A stretch of DNA of 64,000 nucleotides from assembly GCA_902557995.1 (NCBI GenBank), contig CACECL010000002.1, forward strand, positions 29,091 to 93,090, in the 5' to 3' direction. Under the pieces are notes generated by a model. The model did not search any database, was not told the origin of the DNA, and saw nothing but the letters and a program-made list of their open reading frames with translations. Shown here piece by piece: positions 17,439 to 63,531 of this stretch (positions within the stretch are counted from its first letter, which is position 1; the number at the start of each line of letters is the position of its first letter). Source of the DNA: an uncultured Pelagibacteraceae bacterium. GTDB lineage: Bacteria; Pseudomonadota; Alphaproteobacteria; Pelagibacterales; Pelagibacteraceae. The position numbers and the translations under genes were made by a program.

Positions 17439-17545
17439 TACCTATTATTTAAATACTATTATTGTTTTAGTAATAAAGAAAATAGACACTTATACTTTAA
17501 AACGAGAACAAACTAAGAAACTTGTATTGATATTTTGATTTAAGG

Positions 17546-17900
17546 TGCCAGATAAACTATAAGCCGGGTTCTGTCATTTAAACCTATCATTTGTCTAGGC
17601 TTGAGATCACTCTCTAGCTCAAGCAACTAACCCTGATGACTAGCCAAGGACGGCTTTTAGTTTTTCAACAATGTCATCTCTACTTAGTCTTGCTCCCAGT
17701 GGGGTTTTCCAGCGTTCATTGTTACCAATAGAACCGGTGTGCTCTTACCACACCTTTTCACCCTTGCCATGTTATGGCGGTTTATTTTCTGTGGCACTAT
17801 CCCTAGGGTTTCCCCCGCCAGGTATTACCTGGCACTGTGTCCTTGTAGAGCCCGGACTTTCCTCTTTAAAAAATTAAAGCGATAAGTCATTTATCTGGCA
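17546..17900 (-). ncRNA. rnpB: RNase P RNA (type A)
   Basis: Minus strand has GAGGAAAGTCCGGGCTC near the 5' end and ACAGAACCCGGCTTA near the 3' end; termini pair as P1 (TGCCAGATAAA/TTTATCTGGCA). Confidence 0.96.
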
Positions 17901-21382: not shown

Positions 21383-21459
21383 TGGTGGGCCCGCCAGGAC
21401 TCGAACCTGGGACCAATACATTATGAGTGTACTGCTCTAACCAACTGAGCTACAGGCCC
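21383..21459 (-). tRNA. tRNA-Ile2 (CAT anticodon, lysidine type)
   Basis: Cloverleaf GGGCCTG...CTCATAA...GGTTCGAGTCC...CGGGCCCACCA; G1-C72 paired (not initiator); C4-G69/C5-G68 as in TilS substrates; elongator Met not fully excluded. Confidence 0.88.
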
Positions 21460-21517
21460 AAAACTTAGAGTTAGTTATACTATTTTTTTATAGTTATCAA
21501 TTAAAGATGATAAAAAA

Positions 21518-21592
21518 TGGTGGGCCGTGTTGGTTACGCTCCAACTACCCCTGCAATGTCAATGCAGTACTCTACTATTGAGCTAACGGCCC
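21518..21592 (-). tRNA. tRNA-Val (GAC) with non-canonical T-loop
   Basis: All four stems pair; anticodon loop TTGACAT; encoded CCA; T-loop AGCGTAA. Confidence 0.88.
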
Positions 21593-25854: not shown

Positions 25855-27051
25855 TTGAACAAAAAATCAAAAAAAACTAACTCAAAAATAAAATCTCAAA
25901 TCAATACAGGCGTTTTAGTTCTCGAAAATAAAAAGGTATTCAAAGGAATTGGAATTGGATACCAAGGAGAAGCCACAGGCGAAGTTTGCTTTAATACATC
26001 CTTAACAGGCTATCAAGAAATCATCTCTGATCCTTCATATGCAGGTCAAATTATAAACTTTACCTTTCCCCACATTGGAAATGTTGGAACCAATAAAGAA
26101 GATCATGAATCTGATAAAATATGGGCAAAAGGAGTGATAATTAATTCTGAAATAACTTCACCCTCAAATTACAGATCATTCCTACATTTAGATACTTGGC
26201 TAAAGAAAAATAAAATTATTGGAATTACTGGCTTAGACACCAGAAGCTTAACAAACTTTATAAGAGACAAAGGCGCCCCCAAAGGTACTATTAGTTATTC
26301 AAAAAAAGGAAAATTTAATATTAATAAATTGACCAACTCTACAATAAAATGGAGTGGATTAAAAAATCTTGATCTTGCAGAAGTAGTTTCAACCCAGAAA
26401 AATTATATTTGGAAAGGTCTTAAAACATGGAAAAAAGAACTTGGATATAAAAAAAATAATAAGAACTCACTTCATGTTGTTGCAATTGACTATGGAATTA
26501 AAAAAAACATCTTAAGATATTTTTCTGACTTCAACTGTAAAGTTACAGTTGTCTCCTGTAAAACTAGTGCCCACAAAATTTTAGCTTTAAAACCAAATGG
26601 AATATTTTTATCAAATGGTCCTGGTGATCCAGCTGCAACAGGGAAATATGCTATAGAAATTATTAAAGATCTAATTAAAAAAAATTTACCAATATTTGGT
26701 ATTTGTTTGGGTCATCAAATTTTAGCATTGGCATTAGGTGGTAAAACAAAGAAAATGAAACTTGGTCATAGAGGAGCAAATCACCCTGTTAAAAATTTAA
26801 TTCATGATAATGTTGAGATAACGAGTCAAAACCATGGATTTGAAGTAGTTAAAGAAACATTACCAAAACATATTGAGGTCACACATAAATCTTTATTTGA
26901 TAATAGTATTGAAGGTATCAAACTAAAAAATAAACCAGTCTTTTCAGTTCAATATCATCCAGAGTCTAATCCAGGACCTCAAGATAGTGTTTATTTGTTT
27001 CAAGAATTTATTAACAACATGAAAAAAAATGCCAAAAAGAAAAGATATTAA
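25855..27051 (+). CDS. carA: Carbamoyl-phosphate synthase small subunit
   Basis: GEVCFNT..TGYQE, SNGPGDP, GICLGHQ, QYHPE. Confidence 0.98.
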
Positions 27052-30000
27052 AAAAATATTAGTTGTAGGAGCCGGTCCAATAATTATAGGACAAGCATGT
27101 GAATTTGATTATTCAGGGACACAAGCATGTAAAGCTCTTAAAGATGAGGGTTATAAAGTAGTCTTAATAAATTCAAATCCTGCAACAATTATGACTGATC
27201 CAGATGTTGCAGATAAAACTTATATTGAACCAATTACACTAGGTGTATTAGAAAAAATTCTAAAGAAAGAAAAACCTGATGCAATTCTTCCAACAATGGG
27301 AGGGCAAACTGCGCTTAACCTTGCAATGGAAGCAGAGAAAAAAGGAATTCTAAAAAAATACAAAATTGAGTTGATAGGGGCGAATTCTAAAGCAATTTCT
27401 AATGCAGAAGATAGAAAGAAATTTAGAAAAAATATGATAGATATTGGTTTAGATTTACCAAAATCAGAAATCTTAAATAATAATAATCAAGCAGCAAAAG
27501 TATTAAAAAAAATTGGTTTACCTGCAATTATAAGACCTGCTTTTACACTTGGTGGGCTTGGTGGGGGAATAGCTAAAACTAAAAAAGATTATTTTAAGAT
27601 TGTTAAAAATGGATTGCATGAATCTCCAGTAAGCCAAGTTCTTGTAGAGGAATGTTTAGAAGGCTGGAAAGAATTTGAGATGGAGGTTGTAAGAGATAAG
27701 AAAGATAACTGTATCATCATTTGCTCGATTGAAAATATAGATCCAATGGGAATTCATACAGGTGACTCAGTAACAATTGCACCAGCTCTTACTTTGACCG
27801 ACAAAGAATATCAGGTGATGAGAAATGCTTCTATTGCATGTTTAAGAAAAATTGGAGTTGAAACTGGAGGATCAAATGTTCAGTTTGCTATCAATCCTAA
27901 AAACGGGCGAATGGTTGTCATTGAAATGAATCCACGTGTATCAAGATCATCAGCACTTGCATCAAAAGCAACTGGATTTCCAATTGCGAAAGTGGCTGCA
28001 AAATTAGCAGTTGGTTATACTCTGGATGAATTAAAAAATGAAATAACTAAAGTTACTCCTGCATCATTTGAACCAAGTATAGATTATGTAGTAACTAAAA
28101 TTCCAAGATTTACATTTGAAAAATTTTCTACTTCTCCTGCAACTTTAGGGACATCAATGAAGTCAGTAGGTGAGGCAATGGCTATTGGAAGGAACTTTAA
28201 AGAATCTTTACAAAAGGCTTTGGTATCTCTTGAAACTGGTTTTTCAGGTTTAGACAGAATTTTTGATTTAAATAAAAAGCAAATTGAAAAGAAACTTAAA
28301 GAAACTATTCCAAATAAAATATTACTAGTTGCTGAAGCAATTAGAAAAAAAATAGACTTAAAAAGAATATACAATTTATCAAAAATTGATCCTTGGTTTT
28401 TAGAACAAATTAAGGAGATAGTAGATTGTGAAATACAGATAAAAACCAAAGGACTTCCTAAAGATTTTGCAGAATTTAATAAAATAAAATCAATAGGATT
28501 TTCAGATAAAAAACTTTCGGAATTAACTAAAACGTCTGAAGAAATTGTAAGAAGAAAAAGATCAGCGCTTAAAATACTTCCAGTTTATAAAAAAGTAGAT
28601 ACTTGTGCAGCTGAATTCAAATCTTTTACTCCATATATGTACTCAACTTATCAAAGAAATTTTTCAATTAACTCTGAATGTGAAGCTGATCCATCAAATA
28701 AGAAAAAAATAATTATTCTTGGAGGAGGACCAAATAGAATTGGTCAAGGAATTGAGTTTGATTATTGCTGTTGTCAGGCAAGTTTTTCATTAAAAGATGC
28801 AGGTTATGAGACTATCATGGTAAATTGTAACCCTGAAACAGTATCAACAGACTATGATACGAGTGATCGATTATACTTTGAGCCTTTAAAAGAAGAGTAC
28901 GTATTTAATATTATTAAAAAAGAACAAGAAAAAGGAAACCTAATAGGAGTGATAGCTCAGTTTGGTGGACAAACTCCAATTAAACTTGCTAAATTTTTAC
29001 ATGACAACAAACTTCCAATTTTAGGAACACAATATACTTCTATCGATTTAGCAGAGGATAGAGACCGATTTAGAAATTTATTAAACAAATTAAAACTAAA
29101 GCAGGCGGAGAGTGGAATTGCAAAAACATTTAATCAGGCAATTAAAATTGCAGATAAAATAGGATTACCATTAATGGTAAGACCCTCTTATGTTTTGGGT
29201 GGAAGAGCAATGGAAATTGTTCATGAAAAAAATCAGCTTAAAAAGTTTGTTGAAGAAGCATTTAAAGCTGCAGAAGAAAATCCAATTTTGATTGATAAAT
29301 TTATTGATCATGCAATGGAAGTGGATGTGGATGCCATATCAGACGGAAAACAGGTTCACGTTGCAGGGATTATGCAACACATCGAAGAAGCTGGAATTCA
29401 TTCAGGAGACTCAGCGTGTAGCCTACCCCCTGTATCGATTAAACAGTACCTTCTTAAAGAAATAGAAAATCAAACAAAAAAATTAGCTATAGCTTTAAAT
29501 GTTAAAGGTTTCATGAATATACAGTTTGCAATAAAAAAAGATGAAATTTATGTAATTGAAGTTAATCCAAGAGCTAGTCGAACAGTTCCTTTTGTATCAA
29601 AAGCAAAAGGTCTTCCTCTAGCTAAAATTGCATCAAGAGTGATGGCTGGTGAAAAATTATCTAAGTTTAATTTAAAAGACAAATCTAAAGGTATGTACGC
29701 AGTTAAAGAAGCTGTATTTCCATTTAATAAATTTCCAAATAGTGACTTATTGTTAGGACCTGAGATGAAATCTACTGGAGAAGTTATGGGATTTGATAAA
29801 AATTTTGGAATGGCTTTTGCCAAAAGTCAGATCGCGGCAGCTAACTCATTACCTAAGCAAGGATTAGCTTTTATATCTCTCAAAGATAGTCACAAAGATG
29901 AGGGAATTGATTTAGCAAAACAACTTCTTAAACTTAAGTTTACATTATGTGCTACTAGAGGAACTGCAGAATATATTCGAAAATATGGGATGAAATGTAA

Positions 30001-30253
30001 AATTATTAATAAGGTAAGCACTGGTTCGCCTCACATAGTAGATGTTTTAGACTCTAAAAAAATTGCATTAGTAATAAATACTGGAGGTGGAAATAGTGAA
30101 CATAGATTAAGCGATGCAATAGCTTTAAGAAGAGCAACGCTTAAGAATAAAGTTCCTTATTGTACTAATATGTCAACTGCTCAAGCTTGTATAGAAGCAA
30201 TTAGATCTTTAAAAACAAAAAAAATGGAGGTTAATTCCCTGCAAGATATTTAA
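27029..30253 (+). CDS. carB: Carbamoyl-phosphate synthase large subunit
   Basis: [16 protein letters not shown], duplicated ATP-grasp halves, C-terminal MGS-like domain. Confidence 0.99.
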
Positions 30254-30260
30254 GTAATTT

Positions 30261-31706
30261 CTAAACATCAACAATCATTGTATCTTTAGATCCTCCACCT
30301 TGTGAACTATTTACAATTGTGCTCCCTTTCCTTAATGCAACTCTTGTTAAACCGCCAGATGTTACGTAAGTAGATTTTCCACTTAACACAAAAGGTCTTA
30401 AATCAACATGTCTTGGCTCTATATTGCTGTCAGTAATTGTAGGAAGAGTAGATAAAATTTCTAAAGGCTGAGCAATAAATTCTCTAGGTTTACTTTTTAT
30501 TTTTTGAATCATTTCATCTTTTTCTTTTTTTGATGCTCTTGCACCAATTAAAATACCATATCCCCCAGACGCATTAGCTGGTTTAACAACTAATTTTGAA
30601 ATGTTTTCAATAACATAATCTCTATCTTTTTTCTCATGACATAAAAAAGTTTCAACTTGATTTATTTTGGGTTGCTCACCTAGATAATAAACAATCATTT
30701 TATTTACATAAGAGTAAATAGCTTTATCATCTGCTATGCCTGTTCCAATTCCGTTTACTATTCCTACGTTTGCTTTTTTCCAACACTTAAAAAGTCCAGG
30801 AACTCCAATAAGTGATTCTTTGTAGAATACTTTGGGATCTAAAAAGTTATCATCCAATCTTCTATATATACAATCTACTTTAAGTTTACCTTTAACAGTT
30901 TTCATGTATACAGTATCATTTTCCACGAACAAATCTTTACCTTCAACAAGAGCTATTCCCATTTGTTCAGCTAAAAAAGAATGTTCAAAATAAGCAGAAT
31001 TATAAATGCCAGGAGTAAGTACTACCATGTGAGGATTTTCAGTTCTTTTAGGTATACATTCCTCCATGCAGTGGTACAGTTTATTTGCATATTGATGTAT
31101 TGAAGAGACTTTATATCTCGTAAATAACTCTGGAAAAACATCCCTCATCACCATACGATTTTCAAGCATATAAGATACACCTGACGGAACTCTCAAATTA
31201 TCTTCCAAAACCAAGTATTCACCATTTATATTTCTAATAAGATCAATTCCAGAAATGTTTGACCAAGCTTTATACTTTGGAGAAAAACCATCACATTCTT
31301 TGATATAATATGGCGAGTTAAAAACTAATTCCTTAGGAACTATATTATCCTTAAAAATTTTTTTTTTATTATAAACATCATCGATAAATAAATTAAGTGC
31401 TTTTACTCTTTGTGCCAACCCTTTTGAAATTTTGTTCCATACAGATTTAGGAATTATTCTGGGAATTATATCTAAAGGCCATTTTTTTTCTTCTGCTCTG
31501 TTGTTGGCTGCATAGACTCTAAAATTAATTCCTCTTGCACTAATTGTACTTTGGCAATTTTTTTCAATTTCTTGTAATTTTTTTTTTCCATTCCTCTCTA
31601 AAATACCAGAAATAATTTTAGCATGTTTTCTTATTTTACTATCATCAGATATATAACCGTCATAAGAGGACTTTGAGTCATAATTTTTCCAGAACTGAGT
31701 AACCAT
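30261..31706 (-). CDS. Circularly permuted type-2 ATP-grasp protein (DUF404/COG2308-like)
   Basis: D.IPRII, GIDL.R, LEDNLRVPSGVSY.LENR, TPG.YNSAYFEH, YRR.DD.FLDP, RHVDLRPF, GGLTRVAL..VNSSQGGGSKDT. Confidence 0.93.
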   Translation of the reverse strand: MVTQFWKNYDSKSSYDGYISDDSKIRKHAKIISGILERNGKKKLQEIEKNCQSTISARGINFRVYAANNRAEEKKWPLDIIPRIIPKSVWNKISKGLAQRVKALNLFIDDVYNKKKIFKDNIVPKELVFNSPYYIKECDGFSPKYKAWSNISGIDLIRNINGEYLVLEDNLRVPSGVSYMLENRMVMRDVFPELFTRYKVSSIHQYANKLYHCMEECIPKRTENPHMVVLTPGIYNSAYFEHSFLAEQMGIALVEGKDLFVENDTVYMKTVKGKLKVDCIYRRLDDNFLDPKVFYKESLIGVPGLFKCWKKANVGIVNGIGTGIADDKAIYSYVNKMIVYYLGEQPKINQVETFLCHEKKDRDYVIENISKLVVKPANASGGYGILIGARASKKEKDEMIQKIKSKPREFIAQPLEILSTLPTITDSNIEPRHVDLRPFVLSGKSTYVTSGGLTRVALRKGSTIVNSSQGGGSKDTMIVDV

Positions 31707-31816
31707 AATAACTAATATTTTAATAAATATACAAAATAGACAAATGCGAAGAATGAATGACAGTTATGCTAAAAATAGTTTGTAAAAATGTTTATTTTTA
31801 AATATCAATTACACCT

Positions 31817-32542
31817 ATGACATATTGTATAGGTATTAAAACTAACGAAGGTCTTGTTTTTGCGTCAGACTCAAGAACCAATGCGGGTCTTGATAATGTA
31901 AATATATATTCAAAAATGATGACCCATGATGTTGGTGACAGAACTATTGTAATAGTAACTTCAGGAAATTTAGGTACTTCGCAAGCAGTTTACAAATCAA
32001 TTGAGAAAGATTTAAAAAGCTCAACCGGGATAATGAACTTAAACACTTGCTCTGATTTCGAACAAATAGCTTCTTACATTGGTTCACTTAATATTGAGCA
32101 CTCCTCACCTCAAGGAATTAATACAGATAATGTCTTACTAGGTTCAACATTTATAGTTGGAGGACAAATCAAAGGTCAGCAACACGAACTCTATTTAATA
32201 TATCCACAAGGAAATTATATAAGACCTGCAGATAGCAAACCTTATCTTGTAATTGGAGAAGTAAAATATGGTAAACCAATATTAGATCGGGTAATCAAAC
32301 CAAACGTATCTATTGGGGACGCATCACGTTGCGCATTAATTTCGATGGACTCAACATTAAAAAGTGATTTAACAGTAGGCCCACCAATAGATTTTGCTGT
32401 GCACAAAAAAGATGCTGAAAGATTGGCTTCACTTGAATGTTTAAATCTTTCTGACGAAACTTATTCCCGAGTTTGTAACCAGTGGTCAGAAGGAATATTT
32501 AAAGTTTTCGACTCATTTCCAAGATTTGATTGGGAAAAATAA
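31817..32542 (+). CDS. Anbu proteasome-type (Ntn-hydrolase) peptidase
   Basis: N-terminal MTYC giving Thr1; SDSRTNAG.D, GNL.TSQ, GGQI, IGE.KYGKPILDR, SMDST.KS.L.VG.P. Confidence 0.93.
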   Translation: MTYCIGIKTNEGLVFASDSRTNAGLDNVNIYSKMMTHDVGDRTIVIVTSGNLGTSQAVYKSIEKDLKSSTGIMNLNTCSDFEQIASYIGSLNIEHSSPQGINTDNVLLGSTFIVGGQIKGQQHELYLIYPQGNYIRPADSKPYLVIGEVKYGKPILDRVIKPNVSIGDASRCALISMDSTLKSDLTVGPPIDFAVHKKDAERLASLECLNLSDETYSRVCNQWSEGIFKVFDSFPRFDWEK

Positions 32543-32544
32543 AA

Positions 32545-33207
32545 TTATTTAACTTTCCAATCGGTTTCAAAGGTAACATAATTTACTTGAATACATCTTC
32601 TTTCTTTAACAATTTTTTTTTTTTCCATACCATGCCAGGTATTTGGTCCACTTGTAAAAAGATAACCATAATTATGTTTGTAAGGAAGTGTCTTAACTTT
32701 CTCTAATTTTTCATTGTAAAAATCAGTTCCTAAATCTTCAGATTCATTTGTATTATTAACAAATATTAAGCCTGACATAAGTTTTTCTTTTATATCGCAA
32801 TGAGGTTTTAACCAAAAACCCTCTCTATCACATATAACCTCAACTCTAACATAAGAATTTGATAAATCTTTATTTATCATTTTAGAAATTGTTTCGTATG
32901 TTTCTTTAGATTGAAGTTCGTTTATAAATTTTACTAAATTTGGAAATTGTGATGCATTTTCTTTATTAATAAAACATCTAAACTTTATTGCTTGTCCACC
33001 TGAAGCTATACCTTGTCGAAATTCTGCAGCTCCACCATCTATTGCTCTTGTTCCATCATAATTAAGATTATGTTTACTAACATCAGGAATGTCAGCTTTA
33101 ACTATTTCATCAATTGCTCCTTCTGACAGAGCATCACTATACTCCCAGTGATTAAAAGGGAAATTATGTTCTTTTGAATTATTTTTAATTGAATTTAAAA
33201 ATGACAT
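32545..33207 (-). CDS. 2OG-Fe(II) oxygenase-like protein
   Basis: HxD (WLKPHCD), distal H (TWHG), R..QVNYV. Confidence 0.75.
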   Translation of the reverse strand: MSFLNSIKNNSKEHNFPFNHWEYSDALSEGAIDEIVKADIPDVSKHNLNYDGTRAIDGGAAEFRQGIASGGQAIKFRCFINKENASQFPNLVKFINELQSKETYETISKMINKDLSNSYVRVEVICDREGFWLKPHCDIKEKLMSGLIFVNNTNESEDLGTDFYNEKLEKVKTLPYKHNYGYLFTSGPNTWHGMEKKKIVKERRCIQVNYVTFETDWKVK

Positions 33208-34151
33208 TATGATTGAATTTTTTCTTTAATAATTTTTGCTACTCTATTCGTTTCATCTAATTTTTGATAGTTCCAATTTTCAATTTCTTCACCTAAGTTT
33301 CTAGTAATATTTAATTTTCTAAATAAATTTCTAAAATTCTGAAATCTGACGTCTTTTCTTTTTGGTAAAATATTAGCAACATAAATTGGTTTTCCAGTTA
33401 AAGCAGCTTCAGATATCATTGAGCTAGAGTCACATGTAACAACTATATTTTCCGAAATTGCTAAAGCTGAAAGATAAGCTTTTTTATCAACATTCATAAT
33501 CACAGTGTGATTTTCTCCAAAAAACTCTTTTGCATAATGTATAGTATTTAATGGTGTTCTCATTGAAGGTATCACCACAAGTTGAAAATCATGTTTTTTC
33601 AATAGTTTGTAAAAAATTGAAAATATATGCTTCATATTTTTTGTTGAGTAGTCATAATATTTTGTAGGACCACCCATTATCAAACACCAAACTTTTCTAT
33701 TATCCTGTTTGATATATGAATTTAAATAACTTCTATTTTCTTCAATTTCATTTTCCGTCAAATAGTGAATTGCACCTTTTGTTTTAATTACATTTGCACC
33801 ACTTATCCCATCATGTTCGGGAGCAACAATAAAATCAAAATGATTAAAATCCACCTTTGGATCTTGAATATGAATATTTAAAACTTTTTTTTTTGAAATA
33901 CTTTTTAAGTGGATTGAGGGAATCACACTTTTTCTTCCACATGAAATAATTACATCAAAATCAGAATCGTTTATTTTTTTATAAACCTTTTGTGATACTG
34001 GTGTTAATTTTGGGGGAACAATTTTCCAAAAATTATTTAGTTCAACCTTATGGTGTGTAAAATCAATATCTAAGGCTTTTGCTAAACCTTCTACCTGGCT
34101 TATCATGCCATGCATTCCTTGAGTTAATAATAAACCTTTTAATTTAGACAT
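33207..34151 (-). CDS. ELM1/GtrOC1 family (DUF1022) putative glycosyltransferase
   Basis: G..SQ..GLA.AL, HIQDP, FD.IV.P.HD, GG, S.RTP, VT.DS.SMISEA..TGKP. Confidence 0.85.
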   Translation of the reverse strand: MSKLKGLLLTQGMHGMISQVEGLAKALDIDFTHHKVELNNFWKIVPPKLTPVSQKVYKKINDSDFDVIISCGRKSVIPSIHLKSISKKKVLNIHIQDPKVDFNHFDFIVAPEHDGISGANVIKTKGAIHYLTENEIEENRSYLNSYIKQDNRKVWCLIMGGPTKYYDYSTKNMKHIFSIFYKLLKKHDFQLVVIPSMRTPLNTIHYAKEFFGENHTVIMNVDKKAYLSALAISENIVVTCDSSSMISEAALTGKPIYVANILPKRKDVRFQNFRNLFRKLNITRNLGEEIENWNYQKLDETNRVAKIIKEKIQS

Positions 34152-35120: not shown

Positions 35121-35534
35121 ATGAAATTAAATTGGATTATTTTTGTAACTGGATGGATGTCATTCAGAGCAGTTGGGTCAGGTTTGTTTTTGTTTTGGAT
35201 TTTTACCGAAAATGAACGTTCGGCACCATCCGAATGGATAATTCCTTTTGTGGGTGATTTTTTTATTGGAATAACTGCTTTATTTTTAGTTTACCACATT
35301 TTAAAAAAACCAAGCACTATACTATGGGGTCTTTTGCTGTCTTGGAATGTGATTGGTTTGTTAGATTTAATTGGGGCAATAAATGTAAGTTTTGCTGCTC
35401 CTTATGGACCTATACCAGAAATAGGATTTAATGAATTGGTTGTAAGATTTATTTTAAGTTTGAATACTTTATTTCAGATTTCTTGTATTTACTTATTGTT
35501 TCAAAAAGACATAAAAGAATATTTTAAATTTTAA
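35121..35534 (+). CDS. Hypothetical 4-TM membrane protein
   Basis: 137 aa with four hydrophobic segments; starts 3 nt after trxB stop. Confidence 0.7.
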   Translation: MKLNWIIFVTGWMSFRAVGSGLFLFWIFTENERSAPSEWIIPFVGDFFIGITALFLVYHILKKPSTILWGLLLSWNVIGLLDLIGAINVSFAAPYGPIPEIGFNELVVRFILSLNTLFQISCIYLLFQKDIKEYFKF

Positions 35535-58426: not shown

Positions 58427-58500
58427 TGGCTGGGGCGCTAGGATTCGAACCTAGGATGCAGGTACCAAAAACCCGTGCCTTACCGCTTGGCTACGCCCCA
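58427..58500 (-). tRNA. tRNA-Gln (TTG)
   Basis: TGGGGCGTAGCCAAGCGGTAAGGC...TTTTGGT...GGTTCGAATCC...CGCCCCAGCCA. Confidence 0.96.
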
Positions 58501-62395: not shown

Positions 62396-62448
62396 GAATC
62401 CAAATTTTTCAATCTCAGGTTGACCGTAGAATCCATATGGAGTCTAAT
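62396..62448 (+). promoter_or_regulatory. Putative ccrM promoter with three GANTC sites
   Basis: GAATC 62396, GAATC 62429, GAGTC 62440; TTGACC at 62420-62425 with TCTAAT 17 bp downstream. Confidence 0.65.
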
Positions 62449-62460
62449 TAATTTTTACAA

Positions 62461-63531
62461 ATGAAAACTGATTTCAAAAATAAAATAATTAATGGAGATA
62501 GTCTCGAAGAATTAAAAAAAATTCCACGTGAAACTTTTAATTTAATTTTTGCTGACCCTCCTTACAACTTACAATTAAAAAGTGAATTAACTAGACCAGA
62601 TAGATCAAAGGTTAGTGCGGTAAATGATAAGTGGGATCAATTTGAAAATTTTAAAAAATATGATGATTTTACTTATGAATGGCTTAGTGAATGTAAAAGA
62701 ATTTTAAAAAAAGATGGGGCTATTTGGGTTATAGGAAGCTACCATAATATTTTTAGAGTTGGCACAGCGATCCAAAATTTAGGTTTCTGGATTTTAAACG
62801 ATGTCATTTGGAATAAAAATAATCCAATGCCAAACTTTAGAGGGACACGTTTTACTAACGCTCATGAAACTTTAATATGGGCTTCTAAAAGCGAAAAATC
62901 AAAATACACATTCAATTATCAATCTTTAAAATGTTTAAATGATGATTTACAAATGAGATCTAATTGGGATCTTCCAATATGCAATGGTTCTGAAAGACTT
63001 AAAAAGGATGGAAAAAAAATTCATTCTACACAAAAACCAGAAGCACTATTACATAGGATTTTACTAGCTTCATCTAATAAAAATGACCTAATACTTGATC
63101 CTTTTTTAGGATCAGGAACAACTGCTACAGTAGCAAAAAAACTAGGAAGAAATTATTTTGGAATAGAAAAAGAAAAAAATTATTTTAAAGCTGCTGAGCA
63201 ACGCATAAAAGCTACAAAGCCAATTGAGGACGATTTATTAGATACGCTAAAAAACAATAGATCAAAACCAAGAATTCCTTTTGGTTCATTAGTCGAGCTT
63301 GGAATAATTAAACCTGGAACAAATATTTTTGATAATAAGAAAAAAATTACAGCCAGAATTATGGCTGATGGTAGTATAAAACATAGTCAAGCTGAGGGTT
63401 CTATACACAAAGTTGCGGCTACTATTTTAGGAGCTGAAAGTTGCAACGGATGGACTTTTTGGCACTGTGATATAAATGGACGAATTTATCCTATTGATTA
63501 TCTAAGACAAAGATTAATTTCTAAAAATTAA
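62461..63531 (+). CDS. ccrM: CcrM-type beta-class N6-adenine DNA methyltransferase (GANTC)
   Basis: ADPPYNLQL, W.K.NPMPNFRG.RFTNAHET, H.TQKP, DPF.GSGT, C-terminal GSIH..CNGWTFW; follows rnhB. Confidence 0.95.
   Translation: MKTDFKNKIINGDSLEELKKIPRETFNLIFADPPYNLQLKSELTRPDRSKVSAVNDKWDQFENFKKYDDFTYEWLSECKRILKKDGAIWVIGSYHNIFRVGTAIQNLGFWILNDVIWNKNNPMPNFRGTRFTNAHETLIWASKSEKSKYTFNYQSLKCLNDDLQMRSNWDLPICNGSERLKKDGKKIHSTQKPEALLHRILLASSNKNDLILDPFLGSGTTATVAKKLGRNYFGIEKEKNYFKAAEQRIKATKPIEDDLLDTLKNNRSKPRIPFGSLVELGIIKPGTNIFDNKKKITARIMADGSIKHSQAEGSIHKVAATILGAESCNGWTFWHCDINGRIYPIDYLRQRLISKN

Follow-up and report, generated by a model that had tools for sequence, protein, structure and literature searches.

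Does a ligase gene and a proteasome-like hydrolase gene, placed head-to-head in an uncultured SAR11 bacterium (Pelagibacteraceae), form a complete Anbu system, or are they the visible part of a larger system whose other members lie elsewhere in the genome? The question is raised by a 64-kb stretch of DNA with a G+C content of about 29% (contig CACECL010000002.1 of assembly GCA_902557995.1), hereafter the window, whose parent assembly (G000; 43 contigs, 987 kb in total) has a completeness of 77%. Within the window, a circularly permuted ATP-grasp ligase gene and an Anbu gene diverge from a common spacer; the genes for Alpha-E and a transglutaminase-like protein, which normally accompany them, are missing. 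The analysis described here indicates that the pair is real and widespread, and that it is a seemingly undescribed two-gene variant of a known system. In particular, no description of Anbu without Alpha-E, nor any mention of Anbu in SAR11, was found in the literature.

The Anbu operon has been known since 2008, is widespread and is the most nitrogen-responsive locus of Pseudomonas putida, and it is still without an assigned role; reconstitutions with its four proteins have failed to date. In its canonical form, the operon encodes an ATP-grasp ligase (COG2308), Alpha-E (COG2307), a transglutaminase-like protein (COG1305) and Anbu, for example in Pseudomonas aeruginosa and Yersinia bercovieri; it is reportedly described by Valas & Bourne 2008, Iyer et al. 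2009, Fuchs et al. 2017 and Piasecka et al. 2018. The SAR11 pair resembles the canonical operon in its proteins: the ligase is orthologous and 44–50% identical, and Anbu 34–42% identical, to the alphaproteobacterial members, the invariant residues are kept, and there is likewise no AAA+ partner. In contrast, the SAR11 pair lacks Alpha-E and transglutaminase genome-wide, its Anbu gene diverges from the ligase gene instead of standing last in a co-directional operon, it has a spacer element of its own, and it behaves as a 2.3-kb cassette that is either present or absent.

The assignment of both genes follows from family and structure matches. The ligase is matched by the two circularly permuted ATP-grasp families over the full length of their models (PF14403, CP_ATPgrasp_2, expectation value E = 2e-153, model positions 1–374 of 374; PF04174, CP_ATPgrasp_1, E = 3e-129, model positions 1–332 of 332), and it matches Protein Data Bank (PDB) entry 3n6x (E = 8e-137), which was deposited as a putative glutathionylspermidine synthase. 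The Anbu protein has a PF00227 match (E = 1.4e-9); when compared with the PDB at E ≤ 0.01, it matches Anbu entries alone (n = 5; 5LOY, 5NYJ, 5NYF, 5LOX and 5NYW, with E from 2e-62 to 5e-46), none of them HslV or a proteasome beta subunit. The best of these is the Anbu-1 consensus design 5LOY, aligned over residues 2–240. The N-terminus, MTYCIG, places Thr1 directly after the initiator methionine, and Asp17 and Lys32 are present (T2, D18 and K33 by gene numbering). Alignment to the solved chain reaches residue 240 of 241, so that the C-terminal extension (helix H5 beyond the beta-subunit core) is probably retained. The original prediction, made from the letters of the window, had placed the two intact genes head-to-head across a 110-nt spacer, with the ligase stop 7 nt from the carB stop and the Anbu stop 2 nt from the next stop; all of these features proved exact. 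A second proteasome-family gene of the same genome, located outside the window (G000:C25:4099-4605, minus strand), encodes a 181-aa frame that matches PF00227 with E = 7e-26 and is probably HslV; with a separate HslV-like gene in the genome, Anbu is an additional hydrolase, not a replacement.

The distribution of the genes was surveyed across 151 Pelagibacteraceae genomes, consisting of the window's own and 150 others that are each at least 85% complete. Anbu is present in 52 of these genomes, and the ligase is present in the same 52, apart from one unrelated weak partial match (G030); in all 52, the ligase gene is adjacent to Anbu and divergent from it. The same divergent arrangement was found in 80 of 80 further species representatives, with Alpha-E in the flank of none of them (0/80). 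Overall, neither gene was ever seen without the other in SAR11 (52/52 and 80/80 loci). Alpha-E occurs in only nine of the 151 genomes, all from the window's genus, and these are exactly the genomes whose Anbu is about 63% identical to the window's. The Anbu carriers are accordingly divided into 43 genomes with a two-gene form and nine with a three-gene form that includes Alpha-E (43/52 and 9/52). The two-gene form makes up about 29% of the sampled Pelagibacteraceae species and extends over at least four genera and a second family.

A profile search of the window's own assembly gave no match to Alpha-E (PF04168) or to Transglut_core (PF01841). Because that assembly is only 77% complete, the claim of absence rests on its near-complete relatives. 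In particular, no match to PF04168, PF01841, PF08379 (Bact_transglu_N) or PF13369 (Transglut_core2) was found in five two-gene relatives, two of which are closed (G071 and G116), two 99% complete (G073 and G099) and one 97% complete (G133). Two of the five are cultured strains: HIMB1409 (G073), whose Anbu is 100% identical to the window's, and HIMB2201 (G116), which is a single closed contig. Further, the Alpha-E search returned no match in the 42 other two-gene SAR11 genomes, closed ones included; as a positive control, it detects the gene in nine SAR11 and 124 other genomes. Transglut_core domains do occur in 31 of the 151 Pelagibacteraceae genomes, in proteins of about 640 aa that are also encoded in genomes without Anbu, and these were rejected as members of the system; for example, the Transglut_core gene of one three-gene genome (G055:C1:857803-858141) lies about 100 kb from the Anbu locus and is unlinked to it. 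The missing partners are thus truly absent, and not hidden elsewhere in the genome. The original prediction that Alpha-E and transglutaminase are missing, made for 64 kb, is upheld by the negative searches of closed and 99%-complete cassette-bearing relatives. It had also named two outcomes that would count against it, co-regulated partner genes elsewhere in the genome and a failure of the two genes to co-occur; the surveys found the partners absent and co-occurrence in 52 of 52 genomes.

Strong purifying selection acts on both genes in the absence of Alpha-E and transglutaminase. Across pairwise comparisons within the two-gene form, with synonymous divergences (dS) from 0.15 to above 2 (up to about 2.3), the ratio of nonsynonymous to synonymous divergence (dN/dS) was 0.013–0.062 for the ligase and 0.010–0.061 for Anbu; in the three-gene form, it was 0.04–0.09. 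Both reading frames are intact in every complete locus. Moreover, 103 ligase positions, including a C-terminal SSQGGGxKDT that is a candidate docking tail for Anbu, and 37 Anbu positions (T2, D18, K33 and 34 others) are invariant across two-gene, three-gene and canonical-operon sequences; T2, D18 and K33 are unchanged in all 58 Anbu sequences. Substitutions specific to the two-gene clade number one in the ligase (T61N) and none in Anbu, and these were all that a search for changes marking a lost Alpha-E interface could offer. The ligase and Anbu look unchanged, and the contribution of Alpha-E is therefore not written into the ligase sequence.

Outside SAR11, the composition of the system is different. 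Among 300 alphaproteobacterial genomes, Anbu was found in 62 and Alpha-E in 95, and three genomes had Anbu without Alpha-E. One of these, a 1.4-Mb genome from another family (G436), has the same divergent two-gene form, with a ligase 72% identical to the window's; the other two were rejected as cases of this kind, as the Anbu gene of G430 is at a contig edge and that of G394 is an orphan only 27% identical to the window's Anbu. Among 250 other Pseudomonadota genomes, each at least 95% complete, Anbu was found in 83; Alpha-E and CP_ATPgrasp_2 were each found in 124, and these are the same genomes, so that ligase and Alpha-E occur together in 124 of 124. The one Anbu carrier without Alpha-E in this sample (G577) was also rejected, as its ligase is missing too and its sequence contains 4819 masked bases. 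Altogether, 137 distinct genomes beyond the two-gene lineage are Anbu-positive, and 134 of them have Alpha-E. With the SAR11-type lineage set aside, the pairing of ligase and Alpha-E is invariant and Anbu is the optional member. The proposal that the SAR11 pair defines the essential core of the system therefore has to be qualified, in that such a core is not universal: elsewhere the ligase pairs invariably with Alpha-E (124/124) and Anbu is present in only 83 genomes; the ligase is the sole component common to all variants compared here. The lesson from SAR11 is that the joint role of the ligase and Anbu can dispense with Alpha-E and transglutaminase.

In nine alphaproteobacterial comparison loci, the genes are co-directional save in one convergent locus, and the canonical order is ATP-grasp, Alpha-E, a gap as long as a transglutaminase gene, and Anbu; two loci are without the gap. 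Operons of ATP-grasp, Alpha-E and Anbu that lack transglutaminase (e.g. L036 and L043) show that transglutaminase is dispensable elsewhere too; unlike the SAR11 pair, they are co-directional and always keep Alpha-E. In 2008, it was stated that no Anbu-bearing genome is completely without transglutaminase (PMC3235984), which the two-gene SAR11 genomes contradict. The SAR11 three-gene form, found in nine of the 151 genomes (e.g. G055 and G114), is laid out as Anbu on the minus strand, followed by ATP-grasp and Alpha-E on the plus strand, with no transglutaminase after Alpha-E. It has the same divergent layout and spacer length as the two-gene form and is its sister clade on the ligase tree; it differs in that Alpha-E stands directly behind the ligase gene, in that both proteins are about 62–63% identical to the window's, and in the absence of the spacer element described below. 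A three-gene layout of the same kind, with Anbu on the minus strand and ATP-grasp and Alpha-E on the plus strand, was also seen in a distant Pseudomonadota genome, closed at 3.7 Mb (G582:C1:1876513-1879770). Its Anbu is the best non-SAR11 match at 48% identity, and the locus could be the source of the three-gene layout or a parallel origin of it.

The relationship between the two SAR11 forms was examined with a maximum-likelihood tree of the ligase, with support from Shimodaira–Hasegawa-like approximate likelihood ratio tests (SH-aLRT) and a root placed on nine alphaproteobacterial sequences. The SAR11 ligases are one clade (support 100), inside which the two-gene clade (100) and the three-gene clade (97) are sisters, and the ligase of G436 falls inside the two-gene clade. 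On the Anbu tree, 42 Pelagibacteraceae two-gene sequences are one clade (100) and the three-gene sequences another (100); G436 is an unresolved long branch, and the tree is compatible with a single origin. The two-gene form is thus a single clade whose sister is the three-gene form of SAR11, so that one loss of Alpha-E most likely gave rise to it. The most economical scenario from these trees would place both the loss of transglutaminase and the turning of Anbu away from the ligase before the split of the two SAR11 forms. The suggestion that a streamlined genome kept only a ligase and a hydrolase is in line with the ligase tree, which speaks for loss in such a lineage. The ligase and Anbu trees differ in the place they give to the G071 group relative to G000 and G073; compared with the window's pair, the G071/G116 group (loci L020, L021 and L044–L048) has an Anbu that is 92–94% identical and a ligase that is only 84% identical. 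The conflict between the trees suggests homologous recombination within the cassette.

The pair is best explained as a mobile derivative of the Anbu system that is complete with two genes. Empty sites are found in three closed genomes without the pair, all from the same genus (G077, G021 and G015); there, carB is directly convergent on the 220-aa gene that otherwise follows Anbu, and in G077 these two genes overlap by 4 nt. No repeats or duplicated target sites were seen at the cassette junctions. The clean empty sites indicate that the 2.3-kb pair was cleanly inserted or deleted. Among 50 loci with context, the two-gene pair is located between at least nine different pairs of flanking genes, such as carB and the 220-aa gene, znuA and ribonucleotide reductase, or gpgP and phosphoenolpyruvate carboxylase. 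No neighbour is constant across these contexts, which means that nothing else belongs to the module. The module as described here, together with its origin and its functionality, is held with high confidence.

The spacer is itself conserved. The distance between the two start codons is 104–116 nt in all SAR11 loci examined, three-gene loci included, and in the two-gene loci the spacer contains a 28-nt element with the consensus CAAWTG-N9-10-nATD-NN-WG-NN-ATG, which begins 35 nt from the start codon of the ligase and ends 49 nt from that of Anbu, upstream of both. The inner part of the element forms a near-palindrome (ATAnC-N-GnTAT) with some symmetric substitutions, for example ATGTC-T-GACAT in G054 and ATAGC-T-GCTAT in G141. 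The element is kept across genera in two-gene loci at which synonymous sites are near saturation (dS 0.15–2.3) and is absent from three-gene loci; it was found in 77 of 80 further loci, whereas 16000 shuffled spacers gave none. Scored with a position-weight matrix, it stands alone in its own genome (27 bits versus 15 bits for the next best site).

Several identities were considered for this element and rejected. Matrix and pattern scans of the window's own genome gave no credible second site and thus no regulon sharing it. As for a glutamine or other riboswitch, no Rfam family matched 31500–32000 even at E ≤ 10, and no riboswitch scored at gathering level across the window or in six related loci, some of them three-gene forms. 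RNAalifold found no consensus structure on either strand of the spacer, and single-sequence z-scores were unremarkable. The reading frames that would begin at the ATGs of the element vary in length and sequence, and ATG becomes TTG in several clades, which argues against a leader peptide. There is no sigma-54 pattern (GG-N10-GC) in the spacer, and the CAAWTG box only loosely resembles the published NtrX site (CAA-N2-5-TTG), so that this assignment would be speculation. A scan for sigma-70 promoters and terminators gave 12 promoter-like sites as compared to 12.9 expected from shuffles, none of them in the spacer, in this AT-rich DNA. No Rfam family or conserved RNA fold fits the spacer. The element is read at the DNA level, as a candidate operator or promoter that would serve both genes and be private to the cassette.

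Two further leads come from the genomic context. In 10 of the 43 two-gene loci, a glucosylglycerate gene set abuts the cassette, in three orientations (G099, G127, G020, G054, G080, G102, G026, G133, G143 and G123). In the first of these, the three enzymes match their families below the models' curated cut-offs, so that their names in Table 1 hold at family level only. A glucosyl-3-phosphoglycerate synthase (GpgS) was present elsewhere in the genome in five of eight other cassette-bearing genomes tested, in none of nine cassette-less genomes and not in the one three-gene genome tested; the sample of related genomes is small, which makes the association a lead, not a result. Bacteria accumulate glucosylglycerate, a compatible solute without nitrogen, when nitrogen is limiting. 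The association, as a lead, would fit the induction of the P. putida Anbu operon by nitrogen limitation. Apart from this, the ATP-grasp gene of G133 faces a convergent 133-aa gene (L026:8477-8878) that is GGACT/AIG2-like (PF06094, gamma-glutamyl cyclotransferase family); such a gene is found beside the ligase in G133 and G143 and near the cassette in G007, three loci only. GGACT-family enzymes split gamma-glutamyl-amine bonds, and this neighbour could hint at the ligase product.

What the pair does may be approached through its studied relatives. ATP-grasp enzymes catalyse carboxylate–amine ligation through an acyl phosphate, and the ligase of the Y. bercovieri operon releases phosphate from ATP, which is the only activity reported for the ligase (PMC6376114). 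The P. aeruginosa Anbu has a proteasome-like active site, where proteasome inhibitors were bound covalently at Thr1 (PMC5666114). In P. putida, the only species from which induction of the operon is known, no other locus responds as strongly to nitrogen limitation (PMC3235984); the published SAR11 study of nitrogen limitation makes no mention of the cassette genes. As of 2021, no function of Anbu was known (PMC8665760). By extension, the SAR11 ligase would spend ATP on turning a carboxylate into an acyl phosphate, which it would then join to an amine. This would yield a small amide or isopeptide conjugate that could be a metabolite or a short protein tag. The Anbu Thr1 would hydrolyse the same kind of bond as the ligase forms, and the pair would set the level of one amide-linked product, with nitrogen scarcity as the likely setting. 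Alpha-E and transglutaminase would be accessory (in specificity, in regulation or as a second hydrolase) instead of catalytic necessities.

Similar couplings of a ligase and a hydrolase are familiar from other systems, which serve as functional analogies. Glutathionylspermidine synthetase/amidase also couples an ATP-dependent amide ligase, of a related fold class, to a hydrolase of the same bond; it differs in being one two-domain protein with a cysteine amidase, whereas SAR11 has two genes and a threonine N-terminal nucleophile hydrolase. PafA/Pup with the proteasome, and cyanophycin synthetase with cyanophycinase, likewise combine a ligase with a dedicated hydrolase or protease, and the cyanophycin pair is tied to nitrogen storage; their enzyme families are unrelated or distant, and neither a tag gene nor a polymer is known for the SAR11 pair. 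Because ligase and hydrolase are obligately coupled and have a common control region, the making and breaking of one product is the simplest model. As a whole, the reading of the cassette as an autonomous two-gene derivative with such a make/break mechanism is the best explanation, with a probability of roughly 45%. Of its parts, the opposed action of ligase and hydrolase on one product is put forward tentatively, at somewhat less than even odds, and a link of the cassette to nitrogen is held just as cautiously. The wider proposal, that the pair is a complete nitrogen-economy module of SAR11 ecotypes, controlled by a dedicated factor on the 28-nt element and co-inherited with glucosylglycerate synthesis as an adaptive package for nitrogen-poor water, is unlikely.

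A number of observations weigh against the make/break reading and its nitrogen setting. Neither the ligase nor the Anbu family has a member whose substrate or product is known. The genome offers no second copy of the 28-nt element by which it could be tied to a known regulon; no nitrogen-sensing element was found, and the spacer contains no glutamine riboswitch or other Rfam family. The glucosylglycerate association comes from 27 related genomes, and 10 of these were picked up in passing and not by sampling. Purified Anbu was inactive on standard proteasome substrates, with no complex with its operon partners detected (PMC6376114), and Fuchs et al. prefer protein degradation over peptide synthesis for Anbu (PMC5666114).

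This last preference leads to the main rival explanation, in which the ligase puts a small tag or amino acid on proteins and the Anbu ring degrades them processively, in the manner of PafA/Pup and the proteasome; the purpose would be to recycle amino-acid nitrogen during starvation, not to undo the ligation. The proteasome-like active site, the multi-subunit open ring, the defined S1 pocket and the binding of inhibitors all fit it, and on these Fuchs et al. argue for degradation (PMC5666114); the induction of the operon under nitrogen limitation in P. putida (PMC3235984) would fit as well, and the separate HslV-like gene would make Anbu an extra, specialised protease. However, no unfoldase or ATPase partner is known, neither peptidase activity in vitro nor an interaction with the ligase was found (PMC6376114), and the tightly packed cassette has no tag gene or small conserved reading frame that fits. 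This explanation is rather unlikely. It is quite doubtful, too, that the system is not truly minimal and that a sequence-unrelated protein elsewhere in the genome replaces Alpha-E or transglutaminase, which would also count against the make/break reading. The invariant pairing of ligase and Alpha-E outside SAR11 (124/124) suggests that the ligase normally needs Alpha-E, the ligase shows almost no compensating change (one clade-specific substitution), and other accessory genes, such as that for GpgS, track the cassette; yet no gene is consistently adjacent over at least nine contexts, the family searches were negative in closed genomes, and SAR11 genomes are under strong pressure to shed genes.

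The two enzymes might also be independent, with merely a common control region, the ligase making its own metabolite and Anbu acting on unrelated substrates. No physical or kinetic coupling of Anbu and ligase was seen in other species (PMC6376114), and the ligase often occurs without Anbu across bacteria (124 genomes versus 83). This is improbable for the SAR11 genes, which are never apart (52/52 and 80/80) and have moved jointly through at least nine contexts with a fixed spacer length. As two of the four canonical genes are gone, the pair could finally be taken for the functionless remnant of a decaying operon, a view that the selection data refute: the frames are intact in every complete locus, dN/dS is 0.01–0.06 with dS reaching about 2, no catalytic residue varies, and the pair occurs in at least four genera and in a second family. 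The SAR11 two-gene form is a natural minimal version of the Anbu system that is available in cultured strains; Alpha-E and transglutaminase are unneeded for the pair's selectable function, which cuts the reconstitution problem from four proteins to two. If the pair were an autonomous nitrogen module, two SAR11 proteins would be enough to reconstitute the Anbu system and identify its chemistry. The private conserved control element and the glucosylglycerate gene association provide two new handles, and in SAR11, the most abundant ocean heterotroph, nitrogen economy matters for biogeochemistry.

Table 1. Features of the cassette and its surroundings in the window, and of the glucosylglycerate cluster in a two-gene relative (G099).
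Feature	Position	Strand	Length	Remarks
carA	25855-27051	+		open reading frame upstream of the cassette
carB	27029-30253	+		open reading frame; stop 7 nt from ATP-grasp stop
Circularly permuted ATP-grasp amide ligase (COG2308 type)	30261-31706	-	481 aa	without fused domain
Divergent spacer common to both genes	31707-31816		110 nt	
Conserved 28-nt element	31741-31768	+	28 nt	candidate operator or core promoter
Anbu (Anbu-1 type Thr N-terminal nucleophile hydrolase, proteasome-like)	31817-32542	+	241 aa	without propeptide
220-aa gene downstream of Anbu	32545-33207	-	220 aa	stop 2 nt from Anbu stop
GpgS-like (glucosyl-3-phosphoglycerate synthase)	L023:2041-5806 cluster		406 aa	NF040724, E = 6e-108
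MpgP/GpgP-family phosphatase	L023:2041-5806 cluster		264 aa	family scan
Sucrose-phosphorylase-like enzyme	L023:2041-5806 cluster		577 aa	family scan

Other features of the window lie outside the cassette. The 220-aa gene and a 137-aa gene (35121-35534, plus strand) are conserved in SAR11 and have no Pfam or NCBIfam match; the former is 86–94% identical in genomes with and without the cassette, which places it outside. The gene at 33207-34151 (minus strand), adjoining trxB, encodes an ELM1-family homologue (PF06258, E = 1e-77; ELM1 is a mitochondrial fission protein); its identity to relatives falls into two classes, about 80–86% and about 55–59%, which suggests two allelic types in the genus. 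Rfam matches at gathering level, located at 62396-62464 (plus strand) and at 17544-17898, 21386-21592 and 58430-58500 (minus strand), comprise the bablM small RNA (75.9 bits), RNase P class A and three tRNAs.

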